Shown here: one piece after another, positions 24,561 through 49,838 of the stretch
Position numbering within the stretch: position 1 is the first letter of the stretch
Layout of the letters: each line of letters opens with the position of its first letter
Source of the DNA: Escherichia phage UPEC03
DNA: 64,000 nucleotides
Sequence record: MW250785
Reading direction: 5' to 3' (one strand)
Program-made: the position numbers and the translations under genes
Notes under the pieces: generated by a model
What the model saw: the letters and a program-made list of their open reading frames with translations, nothing else
The model's database searches: none
Told to the model about the DNA's origin: nothing

Positions 24561-24701
24561 TTACCCCAAACAGATTTTACATTTACAGAGAGGACATTCC
24601 GCCTCTTTAACGCGCAAGCGCTTTGTTGCTGTTCGCTTCGCTGTGTTGTGATCATACACATGCAAACAGCGATAACAGATCACCAATCGTTTAGCCGTCA
24701 T
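24561..24701 (-). CDS. Small zinc-ribbon protein (46 aa; below track cutoff)
   Basis: MTAKRLVICYRCLHVYDHNTAKRTATKRLRVKEAECPLCKCKICLG. Has CxxC...CxxCxCxxC. The ATG overlaps the upstream stop by 11 nt. Confidence 0.5.
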   Translation of the reverse strand: MTAKRLVICYRCLHVYDHNTAKRTATKRLRVKEAECPLCKCKICLG

Positions 24702-25164
24702 AACCACCACCGCAACGAACATCACCTTCAATGAACAGTTCGCGGTTATCTCTCAGGAGATTGTATTTCTTTTCGAGTTCCGGCCCGAATGCGTCCGCGT
24801 CGTCATACCAGTCATAGTTATAACTTCCGGTTTCCTCGTCGTATTCCGGTTCGTCGCCGCACTCATTGAAGTGAACGATTTTAACATCATCCAGATTCAG
24901 TTCTTTCAGCTTGTCCCAGATGCGGGTTATTTCGACGCTATTACATCCGAACGCTTCCAGTGTGATTGTACCGTCATCATGTACTTGAGGAACACCCCAG
25001 CGCGGACGATGATGAATTTCGGTGATCATATCCATCAGCGATTCAACGTTTGACTCACCGTAAATCTTTGCAACTTCCTGTTCTTTACCAGGGCGGACAA
25101 GTCCTATCCCGATAATGAAACTACTGCTTGAGCTATTGCTCACGAACCCAGAACGGATCTTCAT
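24691..25164 (-). CDS. SNSSSSSF-motif protein, paralog B (157 aa)
   Basis: N-terminus MKIRSGFVSNSSSSSFI is identical to that of the ORF at 28599-29111. Acidic/aromatic C-terminal half. ATGA-coupled. Confidence 0.75.
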   Translation of the reverse strand: MKIRSGFVSNSSSSSFIIGIGLVRPGKEQEVAKIYGESNVESLMDMITEIHHRPRWGVPQVHDDGTITLEAFGCNSVEITRIWDKLKELNLDDVKIVHFNECGDEPEYDEETGSYNYDWYDDADAFGPELEKKYNLLRDNRELFIEGDVRCGGGYDG

Positions 25165-26016: not shown

Positions 26017-28263
26017 TTAGATTTTGACTTCTTTTTCTTCCAGGACGATTTCACATTCGAATGATGTGGTTTCCCAGACTTTCCAGAAATCGGATGGAAT
26101 ATTATCTTCTTTCGGAAGAATATCTTTTGCAGCGATAGAAACTTTGGTTTCTTCGAAGTCCAGATCCGCGAACCATGCATGGGCTACTACAACACCGTAC
26201 ATTACGCGACTTAAACGGGCATTCAGTTTACGGACTTCCTGAATCGTTGCCTTTGTCTGCTTATCAAGATACTCGACTACCTGATCTTTGTCAAGCGCAT
26301 CCAGTTCAGATTTCACCTGATCGTAAGCCCACAGGATAATCAGGTCGCCGTTGTTCAGTTTCTTCTTACCTTCGTCACGTTTCGCGACGGTAGCCGCTAC
26401 AGCAGGAAGGGAGGAAACACCCTTGACTTTCACGTTCAGTTCTTTCGACATGTAAACATCAGTCGATTCTGTGCGCTCAACCTTCGGAGAGAACCCGTAA
26501 TCACGAATATCCTGTTCAGACAGCCATTCACCCGCTGCATCACCAAAGCGCTGTTTCAGCCCTTCTGCGTTGCGCAGTCCGATCGCGTTGTCACGGAAGA
26601 ACTTCATAACCTTCTGACGGCCTTTCAGGATTTCCAGACGCACGTTATCAGTCACGAACTCTTTACCGCTTAACCCGCGAGTCATGCCACGGTTAACCAG
26701 AGGCAGAGAGGTAAAGTCTACCAGTACCGACATACGGTCATCACCGATTTTTTCCAGCGGCTTGATAGTCAGGCCAGAAGCGCGAAGGTTTTTCAGTGTC
26801 GGAATATCAGTTTCCAGCGGCAGAACTTTCACGTTCACGATACCATCTTTAACGATGGTGAAGTTACGCACCTGCTTAGTTTCGATTTTTTCCGGCAGAC
26901 CGAATTCTTTCTGTTTGCTTTCTGGGATAGTCACATACCCTTCCAGATCCGTGTTGATGGAAATGTTAGGACGGGAACTGTTACCCACCAGATGTTTAAC
27001 CGATACTTTGGTTGTGGTCTGGGTAAATTTCGGTGTCCAGACTTCATGCGCTACCATTTGCGCCGCCAGTGCTTTACGTTCTTCTGGGATTGCAGCGTTT
27101 GCGATCTGTTCGGTCAGTTGATCCAGTGTATCATCTTCTTTCTGTACAGTCTGACGGCCTGTGCGGTTATACGCCCAGTGCTCAGAAGACAGGTCGATCA
27201 CTGTGTCAGTTTGTGCCAGCAGTTCGAGCGCATCAACCAGAGTGAACGCGTTTTCGTCTGGAACCATGTTGTAATCAATACCATCAACGAAACGCTGTGA
27301 TGGATCTACAACAGCCTGTGCAATCAGGTCTTTCGCGTTGGAGTAGTCCTGTTTGGTAAAGCAGTTGTCATACGCCTTGATCAGACGGACATCACCCAGC
27401 TTTTGAAGCACTTTCCATGCCAGATCAGGGTTCATTGTGTGCAGTGCATGATAAAGCACGACATACAGAACTTGCTGTTCGCTGGCGATGTTCGGATCGA
27501 ATCCGTCAACATCATTAATCGCGTTTTCACCCAGCGCCCAGATGTTTTTGATGTGTTCTGGAACTAGCACAACACCGTTTGCAGCGTTCAGGACATACAC
27601 GCACCCTTCGTCCAGGTAGATCGCATGGGTAGCATCAGCAACTTTGACTTCGATACGCGCGGAAGTCTGCGCGGTGATGATTTCGTTAAATGCTGGTTCG
27701 TATGCGTCGAAACCTTCAACGAATTTGTGCAATGCGTTGGTTGCTTCTGCCATTTTTTCCAGCAGAGGACGGTTTACATAATAACCGTATTCCAGGAACG
27801 CGATACTGTTGAAAGTCAGTGGCAGAACCGCACACGCTTTCAGAATATCATCGGTACGCCAGCAGTTATCATAACCATCAGTCAGGAAGATCAGGCTGTT
27901 CAGGTTGCCGTTTTCAGATTGCAGATCGGTAGCGATTTCCGCAGCCAGATTCAACGGCTCAACAAAGCCAGTACAACCCGTAGGTTTCAGGTAACGGTCG
28001 ATAGCCGCGCAGATGTTAGACAGGTCAGAGACATTGCTAACCTTCTCACCACGGAACACCGTGCCGTAATCGCCTTTGCTGGAGAAGTACAGGATCGAAA
28101 CGGTGTCATCCTGTTTAACCAGACTCGCCAGATTTGCTTTCAGGTGTTTACGGATCTTAGGCAGTTCGTTGTACATTGAACCGGATACGTCACACACGAA
28201 AACGTGGTTTGTCGGGGTTGGCTTCGATACAGCGTTTTTGAATTCGATATTTGTGATTGACAT
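26017..28263 (-). CDS. von Willebrand factor A (vWA) domain protein with complete MIDAS motif
   Basis: 748 aa. N-terminal vWA with DVSGSM (DxSxS), TGCTGF (Thr) and IFLTDG (Asp). About 550 aa of unassigned C-terminal sequence. Confidence 0.8.
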   Translation of the reverse strand: MSITNIEFKNAVSKPTPTNHVFVCDVSGSMYNELPKIRKHLKANLASLVKQDDTVSILYFSSKGDYGTVFRGEKVSNVSDLSNICAAIDRYLKPTGCTGFVEPLNLAAEIATDLQSENGNLNSLIFLTDGYDNCWRTDDILKACAVLPLTFNSIAFLEYGYYVNRPLLEKMAEATNALHKFVEGFDAYEPAFNEIITAQTSARIEVKVADATHAIYLDEGCVYVLNAANGVVLVPEHIKNIWALGENAINDVDGFDPNIASEQQVLYVVLYHALHTMNPDLAWKVLQKLGDVRLIKAYDNCFTKQDYSNAKDLIAQAVVDPSQRFVDGIDYNMVPDENAFTLVDALELLAQTDTVIDLSSEHWAYNRTGRQTVQKEDDTLDQLTEQIANAAIPEERKALAAQMVAHEVWTPKFTQTTTKVSVKHLVGNSSRPNISINTDLEGYVTIPESKQKEFGLPEKIETKQVRNFTIVKDGIVNVKVLPLETDIPTLKNLRASGLTIKPLEKIGDDRMSVLVDFTSLPLVNRGMTRGLSGKEFVTDNVRLEILKGRQKVMKFFRDNAIGLRNAEGLKQRFGDAAGEWLSEQDIRDYGFSPKVERTESTDVYMSKELNVKVKGVSSLPAVAATVAKRDEGKKKLNNGDLIILWAYDQVKSELDALDKDQVVEYLDKQTKATIQEVRKLNARLSRVMYGVVVAHAWFADLDFEETKVSIAAKDILPKEDNIPSDFWKVWETTSFECEIVLEEKEVKI

Positions 28264-28599
28264 TTAAATTTTCTCGTATTTGAATTTTTCTAAAATTTCG
28301 TTAACTTTATTGCTTACTGCTTCGACTGTACGATCACACCCGAACTTACGCGCCAGGAGTTCAACGTATTCATCCATCGTAGTGAGTTTGGATTCTGCAA
28401 CGTCAAACGCAAGCGCATACATTACTGGATTCAATACTCGAACGATTTGGAGAGTATACTCGTTCAGTTCAAAACGTTCAAGATATTTTCGCAGAGAAAA
28501 TACATCAAACGGTGCGGGGCGATCCTGGCTAAAGGGGATCGACTCCCCTAATGCATAGCGAGGCATAACAACACAGACTTCGGTTTTTAACTTATCCAT
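28264..28599 (-). CDS. Hypothetical protein (111 aa)
   Basis: TGATG coupling upstream; TAA-ATG abutment with the vWA gene. Confidence 0.6.
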   Translation of the reverse strand: MDKLKTEVCVVMPRYALGESIPFSQDRPAPFDVFSLRKYLERFELNEYTLQIVRVLNPVMYALAFDVAESKLTTMDEYVELLARKFGCDRTVEAVSNKVNEILEKFKYEKI

Positions 28600-29111
28600 C
28601 AGTGATGACTCTTTGATGTGTGTTCAAGGTTACGGAAGATGTTTCCATGTTCCAGTTGAGTTCCGATCGGGCCGCATTCATCGGAGTACGTGAATTCATA
28701 GATAAACACGCCGTCCTGATTGCCATACTTCGTGTTGTACTCTTCATACAACCACATTTTGATCAGAGCGTCTTTCTCTTCTGTGTCCAGATCGTACCAG
28801 TCTCGCCCGTCATACGCAAGCGCAATTTGAGGGTTTGAACGGTAGCGGGTTTCTGCGCTTTCTTCGGTTTCCCAGTCATAGCGTTTATCGTCGTAGAACG
28901 ATTCAAAGCTATTACCCAGATGACCGCCTAAGTCACGGTGAACATGATTGACCACTTCTTCCGCTGTTAACGGAGGATTGTAGTAACCGCAGTTCGGAAC
29001 GCAATCACCCATCATTTCGCGCAGGTTGTCGATATTAGTCGGATCTTTCGGGAACCGGACGATGAAACTACTTGATGAACTGTTGCTCACAAAACCAGAA
29101 CGGATTTTCAT
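28599..29111 (-). CDS. SNSSSSSF-motif protein, paralog A (170 aa)
   Basis: N-terminus MKIRSGFVSNSSSSSFI. Acidic/aromatic C-terminal half. ATGA-coupled. Confidence 0.75.
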   Translation of the reverse strand: MKIRSGFVSNSSSSSFIVRFPKDPTNIDNLREMMGDCVPNCGYYNPPLTAEEVVNHVHRDLGGHLGNSFESFYDDKRYDWETEESAETRYRSNPQIALAYDGRDWYDLDTEEKDALIKMWLYEEYNTKYGNQDGVFIYEFTYSDECGPIGTQLEHGNIFRNLEHTSKSHH

Positions 29112-30205: not shown

Positions 30206-30234
30206 AATGTATCACTATCCTGGTCAGTATGCAA
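30206..30234 (-). promoter_or_regulatory. Sigma70-type early promoter; -35 lies in the last codons of the HNH gene
   Basis: - strand TTGCAT (30234-30229), 17 nt spacer, TACATT (30211-30206), leader ACCGAAACGAAAC. Confidence 0.6.
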
Positions 30235-30760
30235 TGTTTAATTTTGCAAATTTACCAAAATGTTTTATCGCTTCCCGATCGTATGCTTTTGCAGCCTCGT
30301 ATTCGTCACGATAGGAACCGATATGTTTAACCTTGCCGTCAATCTTTATCTGTGCAATGTAACGTATTCCAGTAGGTTGATCACGTACACATACACCCTT
30401 GAATCGACTGGTTGCTACTCTTCGTTTAGTCCGGTTCTGACAGTTTCGGGATTGATCCGCTTCACGCAAGTTATCAATCCCGTCGCCAGCCTCAACACCA
30501 TTTTTATGATCAATCACATCAGGCAGTTTTCCGGTTGCAACGTAGTAGATGATTCGATGACGTAGATATCCTTTGCTTTTGAAATAAACGCGGGTATATC
30601 CTCCTTTAATCTTCGAACCTACTTCCTTTCCGATCAAGTCAGAACGTTTGTGTGACGTTCGTATAATTGTCCCCGTTTGTATATCAACAGAAACAGTTTT
30701 AAGGAATTCGTCAATTCCTTTCTGTTCTTCTTCGATTGTTCTTAGTCCGTTGTGTGACAT
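30224..30760 (-). CDS. Free-standing HNH homing endonuclease with AP2 domain (paralog 2 of 3)
   Basis: 178 aa. IDHKNGVEAGDGIDNLREADQSRNCQN and FKGVC..RYIAQIKIDGKVKHIGSYRDEYEAAKAYDREA. Overlaps the methyltransferase 3' end by 19 nt. Confidence 0.8.
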   Translation of the reverse strand: MSHNGLRTIEEEQKGIDEFLKTVSVDIQTGTIIRTSHKRSDLIGKEVGSKIKGGYTRVYFKSKGYLRHRIIYYVATGKLPDVIDHKNGVEAGDGIDNLREADQSRNCQNRTKRRVATSRFKGVCVRDQPTGIRYIAQIKIDGKVKHIGSYRDEYEAAKAYDREAIKHFGKFAKLNIAY

Positions 30761-31665
30761 AACACCTTCTTGATTTGTTTTGCTATAGCCTCGATTACTG
30801 GTATTGAAACAGAATTACCTGCTTGTTTATACGCTTGCATCTTGCTTTTGTTGATAATAAACGAATCTGGGAAACCCTGCAAACGAAAACACTCACGGGG
30901 AGTAAGTCTTCGGGGGTTCTTTCCTTCCTGCAATACCAGACATTGAACACCATCTTTATAGTAATTTGCAGTGATAGTCCCAGTGTGCGTAGAATCGCTT
31001 GTGACGGCCTGATAACCGAAACCCTTACCGTTTGCCTTATTTCGTTCCTTACGCTCTCTAAAGCCCTTCCATGCGTTATCTGACAGGGTGAACGAATCAT
31101 CAGCATCTTCGAGGATGTCGCCTACGCGTGTAGGGGTACGCGGGGGAACCGGAAACGAAAAGAATACATCATCCAGGAAGCAGACAATAAACACGCGTTC
31201 CCGTCTTTGGGGTAGTCCGAAATCCTTTGTGTTCAGGCGTTGATAGAATACGTTATATCCTTCGGCCTCCAGAAGCCCGTAAATCGTTTTAAACGTCTTC
31301 CCCTTGTCATGGGTTAGCAGTTCAGGCACGTTCTCAAAGAACAACACACGGGGCTTTTTAGCGCGTATAATGCGGAGGATTTCGAAGAACACCGTACCGC
31401 GTACATCATCAAAGCCCAGTTTCAATCCGGCTTTACTGAACGCCTGACACGGGAACCCCGCGAGCAGGATATCATGATCAGGTACTTTGTTTTCATCAAT
31501 GGCGAATAGATCACCCTGTAGGTTATCATCGCCCCAGTTTTCGATATATGTTTGCTGTGCGAACTTGTCGATTTCAGACGTTAAAAGGCATTCGACACCG
31601 CCGAACGCCTTATCAAATCCTAATCGAACCCCGCCCACACCAGCGCAGAGGTCAATTATTTTCAT
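30742..31665 (-). CDS. DNA (cytosine-5)-methyltransferase
   Basis: 307 aa. Motif I DLCAGVGG, IV GFPCQAFS, VI FFENV, VIII QRRERVFIV, X GNSVS. Confidence 0.9.
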   Translation of the reverse strand: MKIIDLCAGVGGVRLGFDKAFGGVECLLTSEIDKFAQQTYIENWGDDNLQGDLFAIDENKVPDHDILLAGFPCQAFSKAGLKLGFDDVRGTVFFEILRIIRAKKPRVLFFENVPELLTHDKGKTFKTIYGLLEAEGYNVFYQRLNTKDFGLPQRRERVFIVCFLDDVFFSFPVPPRTPTRVGDILEDADDSFTLSDNAWKGFRERKERNKANGKGFGYQAVTSDSTHTGTITANYYKDGVQCLVLQEGKNPRRLTPRECFRLQGFPDSFIINKSKMQAYKQAGNSVSIPVIEAIAKQIKKVLCHTTD

Positions 31666-31931: not shown

Positions 31932-32164
31932 TCCGTTTTAATACCATGTCGGTATGCGTCAATCCCCAGCGGGGTAATCAGCAACCATGCTTTCGAATTA
32001 TCGTGATAGCCCGTTACCCTTCGAGCGTAACCTTTTTGAATCAGGGCATCACGCCCTGATTTGCTGGGTACGTCATCGAAATCTAAGTCTAGCACCTTAG
32101 TTGCATATCCGTAAAGTTTATACAGAACATCAATTTCAGCGCCGGACAATTTAGGATACATCAT
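31922..32164 (-). CDS. Hypothetical protein (80 aa)
   Basis: ATGA coupling upstream. Confidence 0.55.
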   Translation of the reverse strand: MMYPKLSGAEIDVLYKLYGYATKVLDLDFDDVPSKSGRDALIQKGYARRVTGYHDNSKAWLLITPLGIDAYRHGIKTEWH

Positions 32165-33162
32165 TTGTAATACCCCACAACATGATCGCGGTATACGCGT
32201 TCGATGAAATCGTTCCAGAATTCGCGGTCAACTTCTTTCGGATATGTTGAAATCGCTGCAAGCCGTTCGACTTCGCCCATGACTTCTTCCAGCTTTTCCT
32301 GTACGGTTGCGAACGGTACGCCGCCAGCTTTAACCAGTTTCAGGAATGCGCTATCAGGCAGAGGATAAACGATATCACCATCTTTGTAAATCTGGATCAA
32401 CTGCATACCACCGCGCAACGCGTGACTTAAAGCCTTCCAGTCGATGCCGTTGTTGGCTTCTGCTTGTCGTGCGCGTTCTCCGTATTCATCCCAGAGTTTG
32501 TACACTGACTTACGCATTTCATCGGCTTTGATCGTGAACTGGAATTTACGCCCCAGCACTTCATAGAAGTCCTGACAACCAGATTTCATTGTCGTGTCGG
32601 TAACGAATCGGCAGAACTCGTTTGTAGGGAAACGATTCTTGATGTCAGACACTTTCACTTCACGCGTATAGCGTTTCATATCTGGTGTGAATTCCTGAAT
32701 ACCACCGATCGTTTCGGTTTCTTTCAGTACATCGACAACTTCGCGCAGTGCAGCCAGTCGGGAACCTTTCACACCATATTTTGCGGCTTGCTTGCGAACA
32801 TAACCGAACAGGCCAGTTAGTTCAGTGGTGTAAAAACGCCAGCGGTTAGCGCGGATATACTGCCAGATTTCAGAGTTAGCGATCAGCTTGTCATCCGAAG
32901 CGTGAAGCATATCGAGCGCTACGGTATCACCATCACACGCAAGGCTGATAAACTTAGTCAGACTATACAACTGACGATCAACGTCGTCTACGGTGTTTTT
33001 AGAGCTTTTATCGCCCGTGCTGGTGTCGATAGACTTCTTCGCAGTGCCTAACAGGATTTCGCGAGGATGAGGGAGATAGATCCCTTTGTAGTCTTTATCG
33101 CTTGTTGGTGTTTCCAGTCCGTAAAGATGGGATCCAAAAATCATTTCAGTAATCATTTTCAT
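32161..33162 (-). CDS. Pol-beta-superfamily nucleotidyltransferase (RlaP / PF10127-like)
   Basis: 333 aa from ATG 33162. N-terminal GSHLYGLETPTSDKDYKG matches the GS..YG...SD.D nucleotidyltransferase signature. Confidence 0.6.
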   Translation of the reverse strand: MKMITEMIFGSHLYGLETPTSDKDYKGIYLPHPREILLGTAKKSIDTSTGDKSSKNTVDDVDRQLYSLTKFISLACDGDTVALDMLHASDDKLIANSEIWQYIRANRWRFYTTELTGLFGYVRKQAAKYGVKGSRLAALREVVDVLKETETIGGIQEFTPDMKRYTREVKVSDIKNRFPTNEFCRFVTDTTMKSGCQDFYEVLGRKFQFTIKADEMRKSVYKLWDEYGERARQAEANNGIDWKALSHALRGGMQLIQIYKDGDIVYPLPDSAFLKLVKAGGVPFATVQEKLEEVMGEVERLAAISTYPKEVDREFWNDFIERVYRDHVVGYYK

Positions 33163-33920
33163 TATACAAATCTCCAATAAAACCCTTTATGAGTTTTTCT
33201 TTTACCGTTACAGCATGAACTTACATGCCCTTTGTTATACCCCATTTCAACGGCTTCCACAATACCACCATTTAAAATAGTTTCTCTTTCTGTTTTGATA
33301 CATTTCATAATCAAAGGTTTTATCAATTCCGTCTTCTTTTGTGAAATATTAGCTAATGCAATTACATTTCTGATATCAGATTCACTCATTAAATCAGAAA
33401 TCTTCTTTCTTAACCATACATAGCCTTGACTTTTGGCAAGTTTGCCGGAGCAACATTCATGAATATGACTAGGGTTAAATCCACGCAATTTCATTTCTTG
33501 CCGACCGCCTAATATGATAATCTCGTCTCCTGTTTCAAGGTTGAATCCGACAACTGGAATTATTTGCCGTTCCGACATTTTCTTTCTCGCTTCTTTCGTG
33601 AATATTGTAAGAGATTTTAATTTTCTCGCGTCGCTCATTTGCGAAGATGTCGTTTTGTATTTCTTAGTATTATGAGACATACGGAAAAAAGCATATCTCA
33701 TTTTATCACCAGCATACTTAGCAAGTAGATGATGAGCAAGATAATGCTCTTTATATGTTAAATATACTAAATTTTCGGGTTCATCAGTACCACCTAATGA
33801 CTTAGCAACGATATGGTGTATATCATAACCGCGCTTTCTATACTTTTTCGAGTAACCTTTAGGTATATCTCTTCTTTTTGCCAATGTAATTAGTTGGTCG
33901 TAAATACGCTTATAGTTCAT
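33162..33920 (-). CDS. Free-standing HNH homing endonuclease (Mob-like) with repeated C-terminal DNA-binding modules
   Basis: 252 aa from ATG 33920 (SD AGGAG). HHIVAKSLGGTDEPENLVYLTYKEHYLAHH. Two repeats of CC(S/N)GK..K.(Q/H)G(Y/F).W. Paralog of 61728-62396. Confidence 0.8.
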   Translation of the reverse strand: MNYKRIYDQLITLAKRRDIPKGYSKKYRKRGYDIHHIVAKSLGGTDEPENLVYLTYKEHYLAHHLLAKYAGDKMRYAFFRMSHNTKKYKTTSSQMSDARKLKSLTIFTKEARKKMSERQIIPVVGFNLETGDEIIILGGRQEMKLRGFNPSHIHECCSGKLAKSQGYVWLRKKISDLMSESDIRNVIALANISQKKTELIKPLIMKCIKTERETILNGGIVEAVEMGYNKGHVSSCCNGKRKTHKGFYWRFV

Positions 33921-33947
33921 ACACTCTCCTTTAGGCGTATTTATCAC

Positions 33948-34598: not shown

Positions 34599-35654
34599 TC
34601 AGAGTCCCGTGAAAGCTACAACGATTTGATAGTGGTCATCGAAGAATTCCCCTTGTCGTTGTACGACCTCATGTAAGGGCATCCAGAACGCCTCTAACGC
34701 ATCGTCAGAACCGCCCATAATGCGGGGCAGACTACCATCATTGTTAGGCTCTAACTTGATGTACTGCGCCACAGTCGGTTTTGAGAAGTGTACGGAACGC
34801 TTCGGATGATCGAACAACATCGAATTGCGGATTGAACCACGGATAACCTTTTCAGGAACCTTGATCCGTACCTCTTCGAGCAGTTCGCGGATCGCACAAT
34901 CCAGGAACGTTTCATTTGCGTTTTTGTGTCCGCCGGGAAGGGCTAACGCGTCTTTACCTGGGGCGAACTTACGACGAATTACCAGCAGGTGATTGTTGCA
35001 CACAACCACACTATCACCCGTGCAACAGTTTAGCGCGTCGGGGTATGGGTAGTTTTTGAATTTCTCCAATTCGCTTTCCCATTTCTCGTATTCGTAGAAT
35101 AAACGCCAGAACGTGTCTTCCATCATCCATTTGTCGATATAATCAACGGTTGCTTGAGGAACAAAGCGCAACAGTTTCTTATCCCACCCGTTTTTATGGT
35201 TAAAGATAATCGGACGCAGATCGGTTGCTGATAGATCCTTGCCGTTAATCTGGACAGGTGGAACTGGTACGTGTGTCCATCCGAACGCTTTAAGCCAGTA
35301 TGAACCTGCATCTTTTTCGTAACCGTAGATAGCGATTTTGTCGCCTTTGGTTTCCCTGATAGCAGTACGAACAGAGGTTTTCCATTTCTCTTCGTTGTAA
35401 AGATAATCTGGAATGTGCTCAAACTGAACACGAACAACATCTTCGATCGGGAAGTTAGCGTTTAACCATGAGAAGATCATGGTTTGACGCTCACGCGCCG
35501 TCAGCGGGTTTAAAACGTTAGGGTAAGCATATGCTGAACCCAGAAGGATGTAAACGATCTTTGCTTCTCCGAGTGCTTTACGCACCATTGCTGCATGACC
35601 ATTATGGAAGGGTTGGAATCTGCCAATTACGACAGCTTTATCAAATTGTTTCAT
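34599..35654 (-). CDS. natV: Bifunctional NMN adenylyltransferase / Nudix hydrolase (NatV-like)
   Basis: 351 aa from ATG 35654. N-terminal GRFQPFHNGH (HxGH nucleotidyltransferase motif). C-terminal Nudix box GGHKNANETFLDCAIRELLEEV. Confidence 0.8.
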   Translation of the reverse strand: MKQFDKAVVIGRFQPFHNGHAAMVRKALGEAKIVYILLGSAYAYPNVLNPLTARERQTMIFSWLNANFPIEDVVRVQFEHIPDYLYNEEKWKTSVRTAIRETKGDKIAIYGYEKDAGSYWLKAFGWTHVPVPPVQINGKDLSATDLRPIIFNHKNGWDKKLLRFVPQATVDYIDKWMMEDTFWRLFYEYEKWESELEKFKNYPYPDALNCCTGDSVVVCNNHLLVIRRKFAPGKDALALPGGHKNANETFLDCAIRELLEEVRIKVPEKVIRGSIRNSMLFDHPKRSVHFSKPTVAQYIKLEPNNDGSLPRIMGGSDDALEAFWMPLHEVVQRQGEFFDDHYQIVVAFTGL

Positions 35655-35679
35655 AACGTGCTCCACGTTTAAAGGTTAA

Positions 35680-35827: not shown

Positions 35828-36754
35828 TTATTTACGAGAATCGAAAATCACTTTACCAGCGTAATCAGAACCCATGACAGTTTGAGGTACACCGCCCTGA
35901 TATTTTTCCGCGATGGTCTGCTGAACATCAAGTTCTTTCCAGCGAATCATTTCTGGTGTAATGGTACGCTGCAACACGGCGTTCGCTTCGGCTTCTTTCT
36001 TAGCCGCATACAGACGGGCATCAGCATCACGCTCGTTAGCCTGTGCAGCATTGCTACGGGCTTCTTTATCGGCAATTGCCTGAACAACTGCCTGTTGAGC
36101 GATTTGCTCTTTACGTGCCAGTTCTGCTTTCTCTGCGTTCACCTGTTCTTCACGAATTTTCGTGTTTTCAACCTGCTTCTTGATCGCTTCCGGCAGGTCG
36201 ATATCCTGCAAGAATACCTGTTTCACGGTGTAACCGTAAGGGCGGGCATACTCTTCAACTTCCTGCTGGATCGCGATCTGTAGCTGGCTTTGAACTTCTG
36301 CATTATACAGATCCTGTGCTTTCGGTACAGATTTACCGAACTCACGGACAGTTGACAGAAGTTTTTCAGTCACATATTTATCCAGCGCCTGATCCTGACT
36401 ACCCGCATTGATACGGTTGATCGGGGCTTTGCTACCATCGAACTGTAACATCACGGTCATATCCACAGTGGATTTGAATTTATCCTGGGACGGAACCTGC
36501 AATTTGTCAAACTTCATTGCGATGTCTTTGGTGTTGAACACCTCGAAATCAGCCAGTGGATTTACCAGGTGGAAACCAGGCAGAACAGGCTTCGGTGAAA
36601 CTTTACCCATGAAGGTTTGAGTTTTTACCGTACCATCCTGAACGATAGTGTACGAGTTCGGAACCAGCCACAGAGCGGCGATTACGCCCAGAGCGATCAG
36701 TGTGGTTTTCTTCGGGTTGTTTACGATAGTGTTTAAGTTCATCATTATTTCCAT
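35828..36754 (-). CDS. SPFH / band-7 (prohibitin/HflC-like) membrane protein
   Basis: 308 aa. N-terminal TM helix, SPFH core and an Ala/Glu-rich coiled-coil tail. Start could be 36745 or 36742. Confidence 0.75.
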   Translation of the reverse strand: MEIMMNLNTIVNNPKKTTLIALGVIAALWLVPNSYTIVQDGTVKTQTFMGKVSPKPVLPGFHLVNPLADFEVFNTKDIAMKFDKLQVPSQDKFKSTVDMTVMLQFDGSKAPINRINAGSQDQALDKYVTEKLLSTVREFGKSVPKAQDLYNAEVQSQLQIAIQQEVEEYARPYGYTVKQVFLQDIDLPEAIKKQVENTKIREEQVNAEKAELARKEQIAQQAVVQAIADKEARSNAAQANERDADARLYAAKKEAEANAVLQRTITPEMIRWKELDVQQTIAEKYQGGVPQTVMGSDYAGKVIFDSRK

Positions 36755-43019: not shown

Positions 43020-44366
43020 TTAAAAGTTCTCTTCGACGAATGCAGCCAGTCGCCCACGATATACGGTATCCAGGATCACATGACTTGAATGACCGTACTC
43101 TTTAAGTTTTTCAACCGCATACACAAAGCCGTTGTTAACAGCAGTGTTGCGCGGGTTGTCAATCTGTTTAATGTTCCCGCATAGTATCAGAAGGGTGTTC
43201 TCACCGCAACGGGAAATGATGGATTTGATTTCGTGATTGCTCAAGTTTTGACATTCATCAACAATCAGAACCGAACCTTTACCCGGATCAGGATGCCCGA
43301 TTGAGCGCCCACGGAAGTAATACAGGCTAGGGAACTGGACAACGTTTTTCTCCAGCAGCCCTTCTACGTATTTGTCAACTTCCGGTTGATCCTTAAACAG
43401 AATGTTCAGGCTCGTAATACATGGTTCTACAGCAGGACGCAGTTTTTCGCCAAGAGTACCAGGTAAGAACCCGATTTCGCCCGACAGAGGGCTATCTGCC
43501 TTGACATACATCAGGTTTGCGAAGTGTCCCGCGTTTACCATGTGCATTGCACCAGCAACAGCCAGCATGGTTTTACCTGAACCCGCCGCGCCCATGATGG
43601 TCACAACGTCATTGTTTTTGTCCAGAATAGCATCAACGAATGACGCTTGCAGAGCATCGCGAGGCTGAATTGTTTTCATCAGCTTACGCTTTAACGCCTG
43701 TTCGTGCTTAATAGGCAACACTTCAAGCTGAAACTCTCCAGCATTCACCACACGCCCTACAATCTCACCACACGATAGAATGTATTGGTTAGGGTAGAAA
43801 TCCGCGTCAGGAAGCGATGAATACGTTATAACGGCAACAGGCCCGACATACTCCAGGACTTCAACAGTTTCCCAGAACAGAGGCAGGTCGATATAACCTG
43901 AATACAACACATCACTATCTTTCAGCGAGTCATCGCCAGTGTATTGAAGAACCGAACAACCTTTAGACATCGCGATCAACAGCATGTTAATGTCACGAGT
44001 CACCAGAGTTGCGCCCTGCTGAATACAAGTTGCAATGATCCGCGCATCCTGTTTATCCAGAGGGAATTCTTCGGTGCCGTCATAATCGACGATTTTCAGT
44101 GTTACGCTTTCCGGTACTGCTGGGTTCGATAAGTTTAACGAAACCCCTGTTTGGGTAATTGCTTCATAATTTTGTCCCAGGATTGCTTTGGACAAAAGCC
44201 GGATCGCCAGTCGTGCTTCATGAGCGGTTCGCTCTTTGCTTTTCAGGTGATCCAGTTCTTCCATCGTTGCAGCGGTGATAATGATTTCGCTGTCAGGTTC
44301 GATGTAAGAATAGATTGAATATGGGTTACTAATCAAAACATTGGTGTCTAATACGTATTTTGACAT
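43020..44366 (-). CDS. phoH: PIN-domain / PhoH-like ATPase fusion
   Basis: 448 aa. N-terminal PIN (YVLDTNVLI). Walker A GAAGSGKT and Walker B LIVDECQN. Confidence 0.85.
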   Translation of the reverse strand: MSKYVLDTNVLISNPYSIYSYIEPDSEIIITAATMEELDHLKSKERTAHEARLAIRLLSKAILGQNYEAITQTGVSLNLSNPAVPESVTLKIVDYDGTEEFPLDKQDARIIATCIQQGATLVTRDINMLLIAMSKGCSVLQYTGDDSLKDSDVLYSGYIDLPLFWETVEVLEYVGPVAVITYSSLPDADFYPNQYILSCGEIVGRVVNAGEFQLEVLPIKHEQALKRKLMKTIQPRDALQASFVDAILDKNNDVVTIMGAAGSGKTMLAVAGAMHMVNAGHFANLMYVKADSPLSGEIGFLPGTLGEKLRPAVEPCITSLNILFKDQPEVDKYVEGLLEKNVVQFPSLYYFRGRSIGHPDPGKGSVLIVDECQNLSNHEIKSIISRCGENTLLILCGNIKQIDNPRNTAVNNGFVYAVEKLKEYGHSSHVILDTVYRGRLAAFVEENF

Positions 44367-48391: not shown

Positions 48392-48684
48392 CAGAATGTG
48401 ATCTCCGCAAACTGCATTCTACGCTCAATCGCATGGATAGCGTTATCACGCTGTTCTTTGTTTTCATATCCAGCCCAGGTAATCGGAGTTGAACAGATCA
48501 GGTGAAAAGTGATTGCTGGGTGTCTCTTCCCTTCAACAACGATTGTTGCATCATCTTCGATCCAGGTTACGTGATCCAGATTCACCGGATAGTTTCTTAC
48601 GGTAACAGTTTCACCAACCATAGGCGACACGTCCAGAATATCACGATCACGAACGTATGATTTAATACGAGATACGATTAACAT
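48391..48684 (-). CDS. Hypothetical protein (97 aa)
   Basis: TAATG-coupled to the radical SAM gene. Confidence 0.55.
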   Translation of the reverse strand: MLIVSRIKSYVRDRDILDVSPMVGETVTVRNYPVNLDHVTWIEDDATIVVEGKRHPAITFHLICSTPITWAGYENKEQRDNAIHAIERRMQFAEITF

Positions 48685-49838
48685 TATTTCAACTCCACTG
48701 CATATACATCGGTTTCAGGGGCTTTGTGTACGCGCATATCTTTACCACATACCGCATAAGCCGGACAGTTACGGCAACCGTTATGATCCTTGTTGCCCGT
48801 CAGTTCTTTACGGAACTGTTTTGTTTTCGGGTGTTCCCAGATATCCTTCACAAAATCTTCGGCTTCCAGAACATCCAGACCTTCTTCCCAGCCACCTTCA
48901 ACCCAACGTTCGGTAAACGAGCAAGGGAAGAACTGACCACGTTCATTAATGTAAGAGCTAAACATCGTCGCTTCACAGTCTTCGGCGTATTGCTTGTACT
49001 GTTCGAAGTTCGGGTGTCCCTCCATCGCTTCAACGAAAGCGGGGGCTGAACAGCTATCGAATCCAAATCCTACACCAGAATCGAGGCAATATTCAACAAG
49101 TTTTTTATATTGTTCGCGGGTAACGGTGTCCCAGTTCTTACCGCGTCCTTTTTGTTTCAGTCCCAGGAACACGATCGCGTTGACTTGTTTCAGGCGCGGA
49201 TCATTCTTCACGGCATCAACCACGTTAAACGCATCATCATAGGTTTTCGAGCTAACCATGAAGTGAAGGTTGATTTGCTGTTGTCCGGCTTCTGTCAGGT
49301 TCGCTACTGAGTCGAAAGCGACATCAAAACCAGCGTGTTTATAAACCGATACCGCAACAGCCCCAGCAACCGCCGCTAAACGCGCTGCAACGTCTTTTGA
49401 TACGTCAGCAATGGTAAGGTTCGGTACAATGCCTTTAGAACGCGCATACGCCATCATATCGAACATATCAGGGTTTGTTTGCCCCTGTGCATCAGCACCG
49501 AGTGCGCATTGAGTCAGCCAGGGCATTTTGTCGATGATTTTTTTGAAGTTGGCAAGATCCATGTTGAACCCGTTAGGGTTATTGGACTTGTAGCAGAACC
49601 CGCAGAGTTTACCAGCGGGACCATTACATTTGGTAGTGATCTCAACATCCAAGATTTCTGGGAATGGGGCATAGGTAGGATCAGTTTCGAACGATGTTCC
49701 CCAGCGAGCAAACTCACCAGTTTTAACGTTGAAATTGTAGTTGTACCAATTAGAGCGAGCGAAGCGCATATTACCCTGCTGGTAAATCATTAGCGAAGGG
49801 GCTTTCATTACAGTCTGTGCGCGGTCAATAATATCCAT
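48684..49838 (-). CDS. Radical SAM-like enzyme with atypical CX7CX2C cluster and SPASM/twitch-like C-terminal Cys motif
   Basis: 384 aa. ITTKCNGPAGKLCGFCYKSN has the T..CN..C..CY context with a 4-residue insertion. C-terminal GCRNCPAYAVCGKD (CxxCx5C). Confidence 0.6.
   Translation of the reverse strand: MDIIDRAQTVMKAPSLMIYQQGNMRFARSNWYNYNFNVKTGEFARWGTSFETDPTYAPFPEILDVEITTKCNGPAGKLCGFCYKSNNPNGFNMDLANFKKIIDKMPWLTQCALGADAQGQTNPDMFDMMAYARSKGIVPNLTIADVSKDVAARLAAVAGAVAVSVYKHAGFDVAFDSVANLTEAGQQQINLHFMVSSKTYDDAFNVVDAVKNDPRLKQVNAIVFLGLKQKGRGKNWDTVTREQYKKLVEYCLDSGVGFGFDSCSAPAFVEAMEGHPNFEQYKQYAEDCEATMFSSYINERGQFFPCSFTERWVEGGWEEGLDVLEAEDFVKDIWEHPKTKQFRKELTGNKDHNGCRNCPAYAVCGKDMRVHKAPETDVYAVELK

Follow-up and report, generated by a model that had tools for sequence, protein, structure and literature searches.

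Anaerobic sulfatase-maturating enzymes (anSME/AtsB) exemplify how one radical SAM/SPASM enzyme can serve many full-length client proteins through a short motif near their N-termini, and how the side chain of Ser can be the target of the radical, yielding formylglycine. Triceptide synthases recognize an aromatic-X-X motif in their substrates; Phe, Tyr, Trp or His is accepted as the aromatic residue, and the third position tolerates even Ala (PMC11499958). In the conflict systems built around a von Willebrand factor A (vWA) protein and MoxR, FxSxx-COOH peptides are paired with the radical SAM/SPASM enzyme FxsB; there a processed precursor carries the motif at its C-terminus, and MoxR, the vWA protein and a peptidase are all required (Kaur et al., 2020, PMC7159879). 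Here we analyze a stretch of 64,000 nucleotides from Escherichia phage UPEC03 (record MW250785; henceforth the window), in which two open reading frames (ORFs) on the minus strand, ORF A and ORF B, encode otherwise dissimilar proteins that start with the same 17 residues. The peptide marks a protein superfamily that is very large, carried mostly by phages and previously undescribed, and we consider it probable, from the genomic evidence set out below, that it serves as a common recognition or modification handle for a phage radical SAM maturase.

The window derives from a T4-type myovirus of the RB43/RB16/KP15 kind. Its 24-30 kb region, which holds both ORFs, is 98.7% identical to Enterobacter phage EC-W1, and phages of Cronobacter, Klebsiella and Citrobacter are similar. 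The features at the center of this work are the following:

28599-29111, minus strand: ORF A, 170 residues, of a body family ending ...YSDExG...LEHGNIFRN..H..SHH (phrog_7397)
29061-29111, minus strand: codons 1-17 of ORF A, encoding MKIRSGFVSNSSSSSFI (atg aaa atc cgt tct ggt ttt gtg agc aac agt tca tca agt agt ttc atc)
24691-25164, minus strand: ORF B, 157 residues, of a body family with the exact end ...G[AG]G[YR][ND]G
25114-25164, minus strand: codons 1-17 of ORF B, encoding MKIRSGFVSNSSSSSFI with seven synonymous codon differences from ORF A (atg aag atc cgt tct ggg ttc gtg agc aat agc tca agc agt agt ttc att)
48684-49838, minus strand: radical SAM/SPASM (twitch-like) enzyme, 384 residues (phrog_7293), the proposed partner or maturase of the motif proteins

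The two coding sequences for the peptide differ at seven codons (K2, G6, F7, N10, S11, S13 and I17) through nine nucleotide changes, all of them synonymous, and S13 is encoded by TCA in ORF A and by AGC in ORF B. Recent gene conversion as the source of the identity is ruled out by these nine differences, the TCA/AGC switch among them. An earlier, sequence-only reading of the window had reported this identity, with its seven synonymous differences and a serine that switches between the TCN and AGY codon families, and had ascribed it to selection at the protein level rather than to a recent DNA duplication. Both the observation, which we confirmed on the two ORFs, and its interpretation hold: across 377 distinct DNA occurrences of MK.R.GFVSNSSSSSF, AGY and TCN codons are mixed at every Ser position, and selection therefore acts on the peptide. 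The same reading had described a shared tag on dissimilar bodies, which is borne out as well. BLASTP of ORF A against ORF B gives a best E value of 0.99, and in a profile-profile comparison only columns 1-35 align (99% probability), which take in the N-terminal tail and strand 1 and reach the beginning of helix 1; at the profile level the shared module extends a little past 17 residues. Across the six reading frames of the window, the motif occurs in ORF A and ORF B only. One N-terminal tryptic peptide of ORF A is SGFVSNSSSSSFIVR.

Beyond the window, in uncultured phages and in prophage-like loci, the peptide opens thousands of protein clusters, a family with the signature M-K-[IVT]-R-x-G-[F/Y/H/W]-V-S-N-S-S-S-S-S-F-[IV]-[IV]. 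As the sequence-only reading had expected of related phages, all homologues keep the motif, down to about 25% identity: the N-terminal 16-20 residues are invariant in homologues of ORF B down to 25% identity and in those of ORF A down to 30%, and the remainder of the proteins drifts. An exhaustive search with a profile of the ORF B family retrieved 3393 clusters, defined at 50% identity, with E<=1e-3 and 354 with E<=1e-10; among the B-profile matches listed, 150 of 150 have the motif, and almost all of them begin with it. With a degenerate DNA pattern for MK.R.GFVSNSSSSSF, searched against IMG/VR and GTDB genomes, we located loci in both: at least 120 in IMG/VR, where the viral contigs concerned measure roughly 30-550 kb, and 93 in GTDB genomes, mostly on contigs of metagenome-assembled genomes, with isolates including Acetatifactor muris, Lachnobacterium bovis and Veillonella parvula. 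At these pattern-selected loci the motif genes often stand in tandem, two to seven copies per locus at a spacing of 220-900 bp.

The invariant start is joined to many kinds of protein. Complete motif ORFs (n=196) have a median length of 130 residues, and the shortest clear member of the family that we saw has 72. The bodies (residue 23 on) of 190 motif ORFs of at least 70 residues fall into 54 clusters without mutual BLAST similarity, among them zinc-ribbon-like, A-like and B-like types; in other words, 54 unrelated body clusters share invariant N-terminal 16-18 residues. Conserved residues outside the tail differ by body family (A keeps D, EHGN and H; B keeps W, Y and G), and no residue outside the N-terminal module is common to the families. 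Within the motif, an aromatic residue nearly always occupies position 7 (F, recurrently replaced by Y, H or W), and position 9 is S, T or A. The other end of the proteins is also constrained, as the exact C-terminus is conserved within each body family, with examples from L023, L036, L043, L051, L071, L268 and other loci ending in ...GAGRNG, ...GGGYNG, ...QGGNDNG, ...SGGSY, ...GTRYC, ...VSNDNY and ...ISHH.

The motif genes have a conserved neighbor. When all ORFs of the 213 motif-selected loci were clustered, the commonest family besides the motif proteins, and the sole one to recur widely, was a radical SAM/SPASM enzyme (100 proteins in 95 of the 213 loci). Its gene lies a median of 50 bp from the nearest motif gene, on the same strand in 89 of 90 cases and directly adjacent in 51 of 90, and its usual position is directly upstream of the motif genes. 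A search with the motif pattern, which the sequence-only reading had put forward as the way to the peptide's genomic context, thus found the motif accompanied by a radical SAM/SPASM gene. The linkage is seen from the side of the enzyme too: among 78 IMG/VR loci picked by similarity to the enzyme alone, motif ORFs lie within 10 kb of the enzyme gene in 61, with up to 13 at a single locus. All 245 of these ORFs lie on the strand of the enzyme, and in the enzyme-centered loci 211 motif ORFs are downstream of the enzyme versus 23 upstream. Enzyme genes and candidate substrate genes are thus co-localized and co-oriented in both search directions, and no further gene family is found in more than 11 of 70 enzyme-centered loci.

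Eight of the 17 enzyme-selected loci that have no motif ORF within 10 kb come from the window's own clade, in which the genes are dispersed and the enzyme lies about 20 kb from A and B. In ENT3, a complete relative of 178 kb, there are exactly one enzyme gene and two motif genes. Among 50,697 phage records, genes for the enzyme, A and B are found in practically one common set of 173-174, a co-occurrence that by itself would count as weak evidence because these records represent a single clade.

The enzyme has the sequence features of a radical SAM/SPASM protein. Members at motif loci are about 350 residues long and match the Pfam families Radical_SAM and SPASM, and between the window enzyme and the radical SAM protein encoded beside motif arrays of metagenomic phages the identity is 40% (E 6e-68). 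Seven cysteines are invariant in 35 enzyme sequences: Cys71, Cys79 and Cys82, which form the three-Cys radical SAM cluster motif, and Cys263, Cys288, Cys306 and Cys358, the C-terminal auxiliary-cluster (SPASM/twitch) motif. The closest solved relatives are SuiB (E 2e-10), which modifies a peptide, SkfB, BtrN and PqqE, and no named maturase family in NCBIfam reaches its cut-off. The spacing after the first cysteine of the radical SAM motif varies in the family; many members have the CxxxCxxC arrangement, and in others the spacing is 7-17 residues (C-x7-C-x2-C in the window), an unusual insertion in the cluster-binding loop; loci L028, L081, L101 and L111 and the window enzyme at 48684-49838 illustrate these spacings.

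A further line of evidence comes from rare variants of the motif, which are common to paralogs with different bodies in one genome. At locus L288, His replaces Phe at position 7 in four of four different-bodied paralogs, whose first 54 nucleotides are identical at just 28-37 of 54 positions, so that recent gene conversion is ruled out there. At locus L268, Ser6 and Ala9 occur together in four of four paralogs; one pair of these genes is identical at 52 of 54 nucleotides, to which gene conversion may contribute, and a third gene is identical at 35-36 of 54. Because rare variants are shared by different-bodied paralogs of one genome, this genome-wide co-variation of the tail points to a trans-acting factor that reads it.

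Structure models place the conserved residues in what is probably a flexible tail. AlphaFold models both bodies confidently, with a mean predicted local distance difference test score (pLDDT) of 83.5 for ORF A and of 88.9 for ORF B (predicted template modeling score 0.81), and in both models the most conserved residues are those of lowest confidence. In ORF A, residues 1-9 fall below 50 except residue 5, the mean of the first ten is 46, and strand 1 is predicted from residue 13; in ORF B the first ten average 50, residues 8-11 fall below 50, and strand 1 is predicted from residue 12. Residues 1-11 thus probably form the tail, and the Ser run with F-I-I forms the first beta-strand, anchoring it to the family-specific body. 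The two models share a similar end-topology, strand 1-helix ... strand-helix-C-terminal strand. Since the last strand sits at the C-terminus, the N- and C-terminal tails may lie together, and a second site of function or modification could reside in the C-terminal tail. Comparison of the two models with solved structures and with BFVD yielded no meaningful match (Foldseek against BFVD gave none at E<=1e-3).

Based on the conservation of the tail, its linkage to the enzyme and its co-variation, we propose that one dedicated radical SAM/SPASM enzyme per genome acts on all motif proteins through their common tail. In the window, the enzyme at 48684-49838 would have ORF A and ORF B as its two clients. 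The enzyme would bind the tail and most likely modify it post-translationally by radical chemistry, and three chemistries are candidates: a triceptide-type cyclophane that joins the aromatic ring to C-beta within F7-V8-S9, a crosslink between side chains like that made by SuiB, or oxidation of Ser, as by anaerobic sulfatase-maturating enzymes. Within the same proposal the tail could instead be a docking or leader element, with the modification placed elsewhere, for example on the conserved C-terminal tails. Each paralog's body would supply a different target or activity.

As to their biological role, the motif proteins are probably early host-takeover or counter-defense proteins. Such a role fits the genomic setting of the two genes in the window: ORF A and ORF B lie inside a long minus-strand block that follows the baseplate genes and in which the recognizable functions are all non-structural, their start codons each overlap the stop codon of the preceding ORF (ATGA), and the T4 late-promoter consensus TATAAATA was not found within 8 kb upstream of the motif genes on the coding strand. 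A bolder version of the proposal, which we advance tentatively as a possibility, is that a single enzyme in phages of many lineages and in some bacterial defense islands installs a radical-derived crosslink or protein-derived cofactor on the invariant tail of small effectors from dozens of unrelated families, which would form a modular arsenal, with a common warhead and variable bodies, for host takeover or counter-defense.

Several points speak against a handle for a maturase. The evidence is all genomic; the motif matches the substrate motif of no characterized radical SAM maturase, and the enzyme lacks a named NCBIfam maturase family. There is no conserved leader protease among the gene families at the 70 enzyme-centered loci, and the system therefore differs from typical pathways for peptides that are synthesized on the ribosome and then modified post-translationally (RiPPs). 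The linkage is strong but not universal, since the enzyme gene is not seen in 107 of 192 motif-selected loci, whose DNA typically spans 5-15 kb and in some cases much less, and since 20 kb separate the genes in the window's clade; co-occurrence in complete genomes rests on one genome, ENT3. In the structure models, moreover, the Ser run belongs to strand 1, so that its conservation may be partly structural, and the low pLDDT of the tail could reflect pairing with another partner, such as an oligomer partner. In another explanation, the strand and the Ser-rich loop would be the ligand-binding, catalytic or oligomerization element of one fast-evolving superfamily, and the radical SAM enzyme would be a pathway neighbor, which makes or consumes the ligand for instance, rather than a modifier of the proteins. 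The shared module of about 35 residues, which takes in strand 1 and the start of helix 1, the similar end-topology of both models and the exact C-terminus of each body family, which suggests that the N- and C-ends form one site, would all suit such an element. We nevertheless regard it as unlikely, because no residue beyond the N-terminal module is common to the body families, the tail is of low confidence in both models, neither fold nor sequence matches a known enzyme or binding family, and the co-variation of tails across paralogs points to a partner acting in trans. A known active-site strand, an option left by the sequence-only reading, found no counterpart, as searches of Pfam, NCBIfam, PADLOC and PDB sequences with A and B returned nothing significant and the fold comparison no match. 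Nearer to our own proposal is the idea that the tail docks the motif proteins into the radical SAM enzyme and is itself unmodified, the bodies acting as adaptors that recruit third-party substrates (host proteins, nucleic acids or small molecules) or regulate the enzyme. This would explain the same linkage data and the same genome-specific co-variation, and the bodies are folded domains, unlike the core peptides of RiPPs. Against it, the closest solved relatives of the enzyme act directly on a linked peptide, and bodies of down to about 50 residues, as in the 72-residue protein, leave a small surface for recruitment. To our knowledge there is also no precedent for one radical SAM/SPASM enzyme with up to 13 different adaptors, and we find this reading rather improbable.

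Two further explanations came from the sequence-only reading, and one of them involves the gene that lies between A and B:

26017-28263, minus strand: vWA-domain protein, 748 residues, with Pfam VWA, VWA_2 and VWA_3 matches at residues 21-176; context only

The tag could steer cargo proteins into the prohead or virion, as in the internal proteins of T4; formally the two cases are alike, in that small, dissimilar proteins of a T4-type phage begin with one and the same short peptide. This explanation fares worst, and we give it hardly any probability. Residues 1-17 contain no Glu in either protein, hence no (L/I)-x-E prohead-protease site in the motif or at its end. Both genes sit in the minus-strand block whose identifiable genes are non-structural, no late-promoter consensus was found within 8 kb upstream of them, and the conserved neighbor encodes a radical SAM enzyme, not a head protein. 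A scaffold-binding tag should moreover co-evolve with the capsid, whereas phage contigs from 30 to 550 kb in size and bacterial loci beside defense genes, including those of Firmicutes and Veillonella, carry the 17-mer unchanged. Almost as improbable to us is a conventional modification of the Ser residues by phosphorylation or glycosylation, or docking of the strand on the face of the vWA protein that bears the metal ion-dependent adhesion site (MIDAS), even though the motif offers five to six consecutive Ser residues and a vWA gene stands between A and B. No kinase, phosphatase or glycosyltransferase family recurs near the motif genes. Of the proposed poly-Ser modification site, the idea of a modification comes closest to our findings, and what changes is the partner, a radical SAM/SPASM enzyme instead of a kinase or glycosyltransferase. 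The vWA docking site did not stand, as a vWA gene accompanies motif genes in the window's clade only (5 of 213 loci). A MIDAS normally binds an acidic residue as its ligand, and no such residue occurs in the motif.

Both the vWA protein and ORF B carry labels in databases. PHROGs matches of A and B are to families without function, plus one to 'head-tail adaptor' for ORF B (phrog_132), and in some GenBank records (for example L001, PP889464.1) ORF B is named 'head-tail adaptor' via phrog_132 and the vWA protein 'minor tail protein'. These structural labels are without any support in our data, and the analysis corrects automatic annotations that are now propagating. A near-identical vWA protein and both motif genes also occur in a record of 178,077 bp from a 'Flagellimonas marina' assembly (L132, NZ_JBHSCL010000010.1); because it resembles a complete enterobacterial T4-type phage genome, it is probably such a genome present as a contaminant in the assembly of a marine flavobacterium.

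Some bacterial genomes hold the motif protein and the radical SAM/SPASM gene in a conserved operon (L156, 503-7520; also L123, L139, L164 and L179; from Acetatifactor, Veillonella and Lachnobacterium). There the motif protein is single, has 137 residues and starts MKIRNGFVTNSSSTSF... Just upstream of the pair are an Avs1a/LmuA-like protein with a metallo-beta-lactamase fold and a trypsin-like protease of about 980 residues fused to a NACHT/STAND NTPase (Avs2/Avs1b-like by PADLOC); the operon also encodes proteins of 140 and of 310-330 residues without known function. The pair of motif protein and enzyme may thus also work inside bacterial defense islands.

In the window, other genes of the same region include:

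30224-31665, minus strand: a C5 DNA methyltransferase-like ORF, called from sequence motifs and from a DNA methyltransferase label in a relative, and the HNH-endonuclease ORF downstream, whose start it overlaps
32161-33177, minus strand: RlaP-type (polymerase-beta family) nucleotidyltransferase, in the same minus-strand block
33162-33947, minus strand: a second ORF with an I-HmuI/NUMOD-like domain
34599-35666, minus strand: 355-residue fusion of a cytidylyltransferase-like domain (nicotinamide mononucleotide adenylyltransferase type) and a NUDIX domain, resembling the NAD-salvage enzyme of some T4-type phages
35828-36754, minus strand: SPFH/Band 7 protein, in the same block
43020-44366, minus strand: PIN-PhoH ATPase fusion, in the same block

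In relatives, the 24-30 kb region shows insertions or deletions of about 670 bp, visible as two-piece BLAST matches, consistent with mobile endonuclease genes.

We found no description of the motif family in Pfam, NCBIfam or the PDB, and in the full-text literature searched the strings SNSSSSSF and VSNSSSS occur in no paper, nor did we find one that links a phage radical SAM/SPASM enzyme to such proteins. If our proposal is right, it would provide a first functional lead for thousands of clusters of 'hypothetical' phage proteins (3393 for the profile of one body family), and the known range of radical SAM maturases, short peptides and sulfatases, would widen to arrays of diverse phage proteins of full length. 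That the tail is so extremely conserved in phages whose hosts differ greatly would imply a chemically demanding shared step, perhaps a new modification or a protein-derived cofactor. The system is present in cultivable T4-type phages of E. coli, Klebsiella and Enterobacter with one enzyme and two client genes, which makes the hypothesis directly testable, with RB43 and RB16 as tractable models.

How, then, does the system compare with those already described? It resembles the internal proteins IPI, IPII and IPIII of T4 in having an identical short N-terminus on dissimilar small proteins of T4-type phages. The capsid-targeting sequence, however, has a prohead-protease site (..IAE) at its end and works with the T4 scaffold specifically, whereas the motif here lacks acidic residues, stays invariant from one phage to very different others and into bacterial loci, and has radical SAM rather than head genes linked to it. 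With the FxSxx/FxsB systems it has in common an F-x-S-x-x motif, a radical SAM/SPASM enzyme and, in the window, a vWA protein between A and B, but its motif is N-terminal and the vWA gene is not a conserved partner. Membership in the vWA-MoxR/FxSxx group is ruled out by the position of the motif at the wrong terminus and by the absence of a MoxR-type AAA+ protein among the Pfam-scanned ORFs, so that the resemblance is a suggestive parallel. Glycyl-radical enzymes carry the fingerprint R-[IVT]-[CSA]-G-[YF] near their C-terminus and depend on a small activase without a SPASM domain; their motif (R-V-x-G-Y), which R4-x-G6-F7 brings to mind, is ruled out by spacing shorter by one residue, by the N-terminal position and by the SPASM/twitch type of the enzyme.

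The closest parallels are the radical SAM/SPASM maturases themselves. The sulfatases and their anSME share with our system a single enzyme, many full-length clients and a short motif near the N-terminus; the clients here are not sulfatases, have no common catalytic fold and match no sequence family, and the anSME substrate motif (C/S)-x-(P/A)-x-R is not found in S-N-S-S-S-S-S-F, which is without Pro/Ala-x-Arg. The aromatic-X-X motif of the triceptides does have a counterpart, with F, Y, H or W at position 7 and S, T or A at position 9; for the enzyme, no named NCBIfam maturase family reaches its cut-off, and the closest solved structure is the Lys-Trp crosslinking SuiB. Peptide maturases in general (SuiB/StrB for streptide, SkfB, PqqE and triceptide synthases) agree with the phage enzyme in the radical SAM cluster, in the cysteines of the C-terminal auxiliary Fe-S cluster and in adjoining, on the same strand, substrate genes that have a short shared motif. 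They differ in that no leader protease or transporter recurs at the 70 loci and in that the carriers here are overwhelmingly phages. In place of short peptides, the clients are proteins of 70-300 residues from dozens of body families, two of which fold confidently when modeled, and the conserved element forms their very N-terminus and hardly varies over the entire distribution. Systems in which a radical SAM maturase is linked to substrates that bear a motif are thus of a known kind; what is new here are the full-length clients of dozens of families, the nearly invariant N-terminal tag that they share, their arrangement in gene arrays and their carriage by phages.

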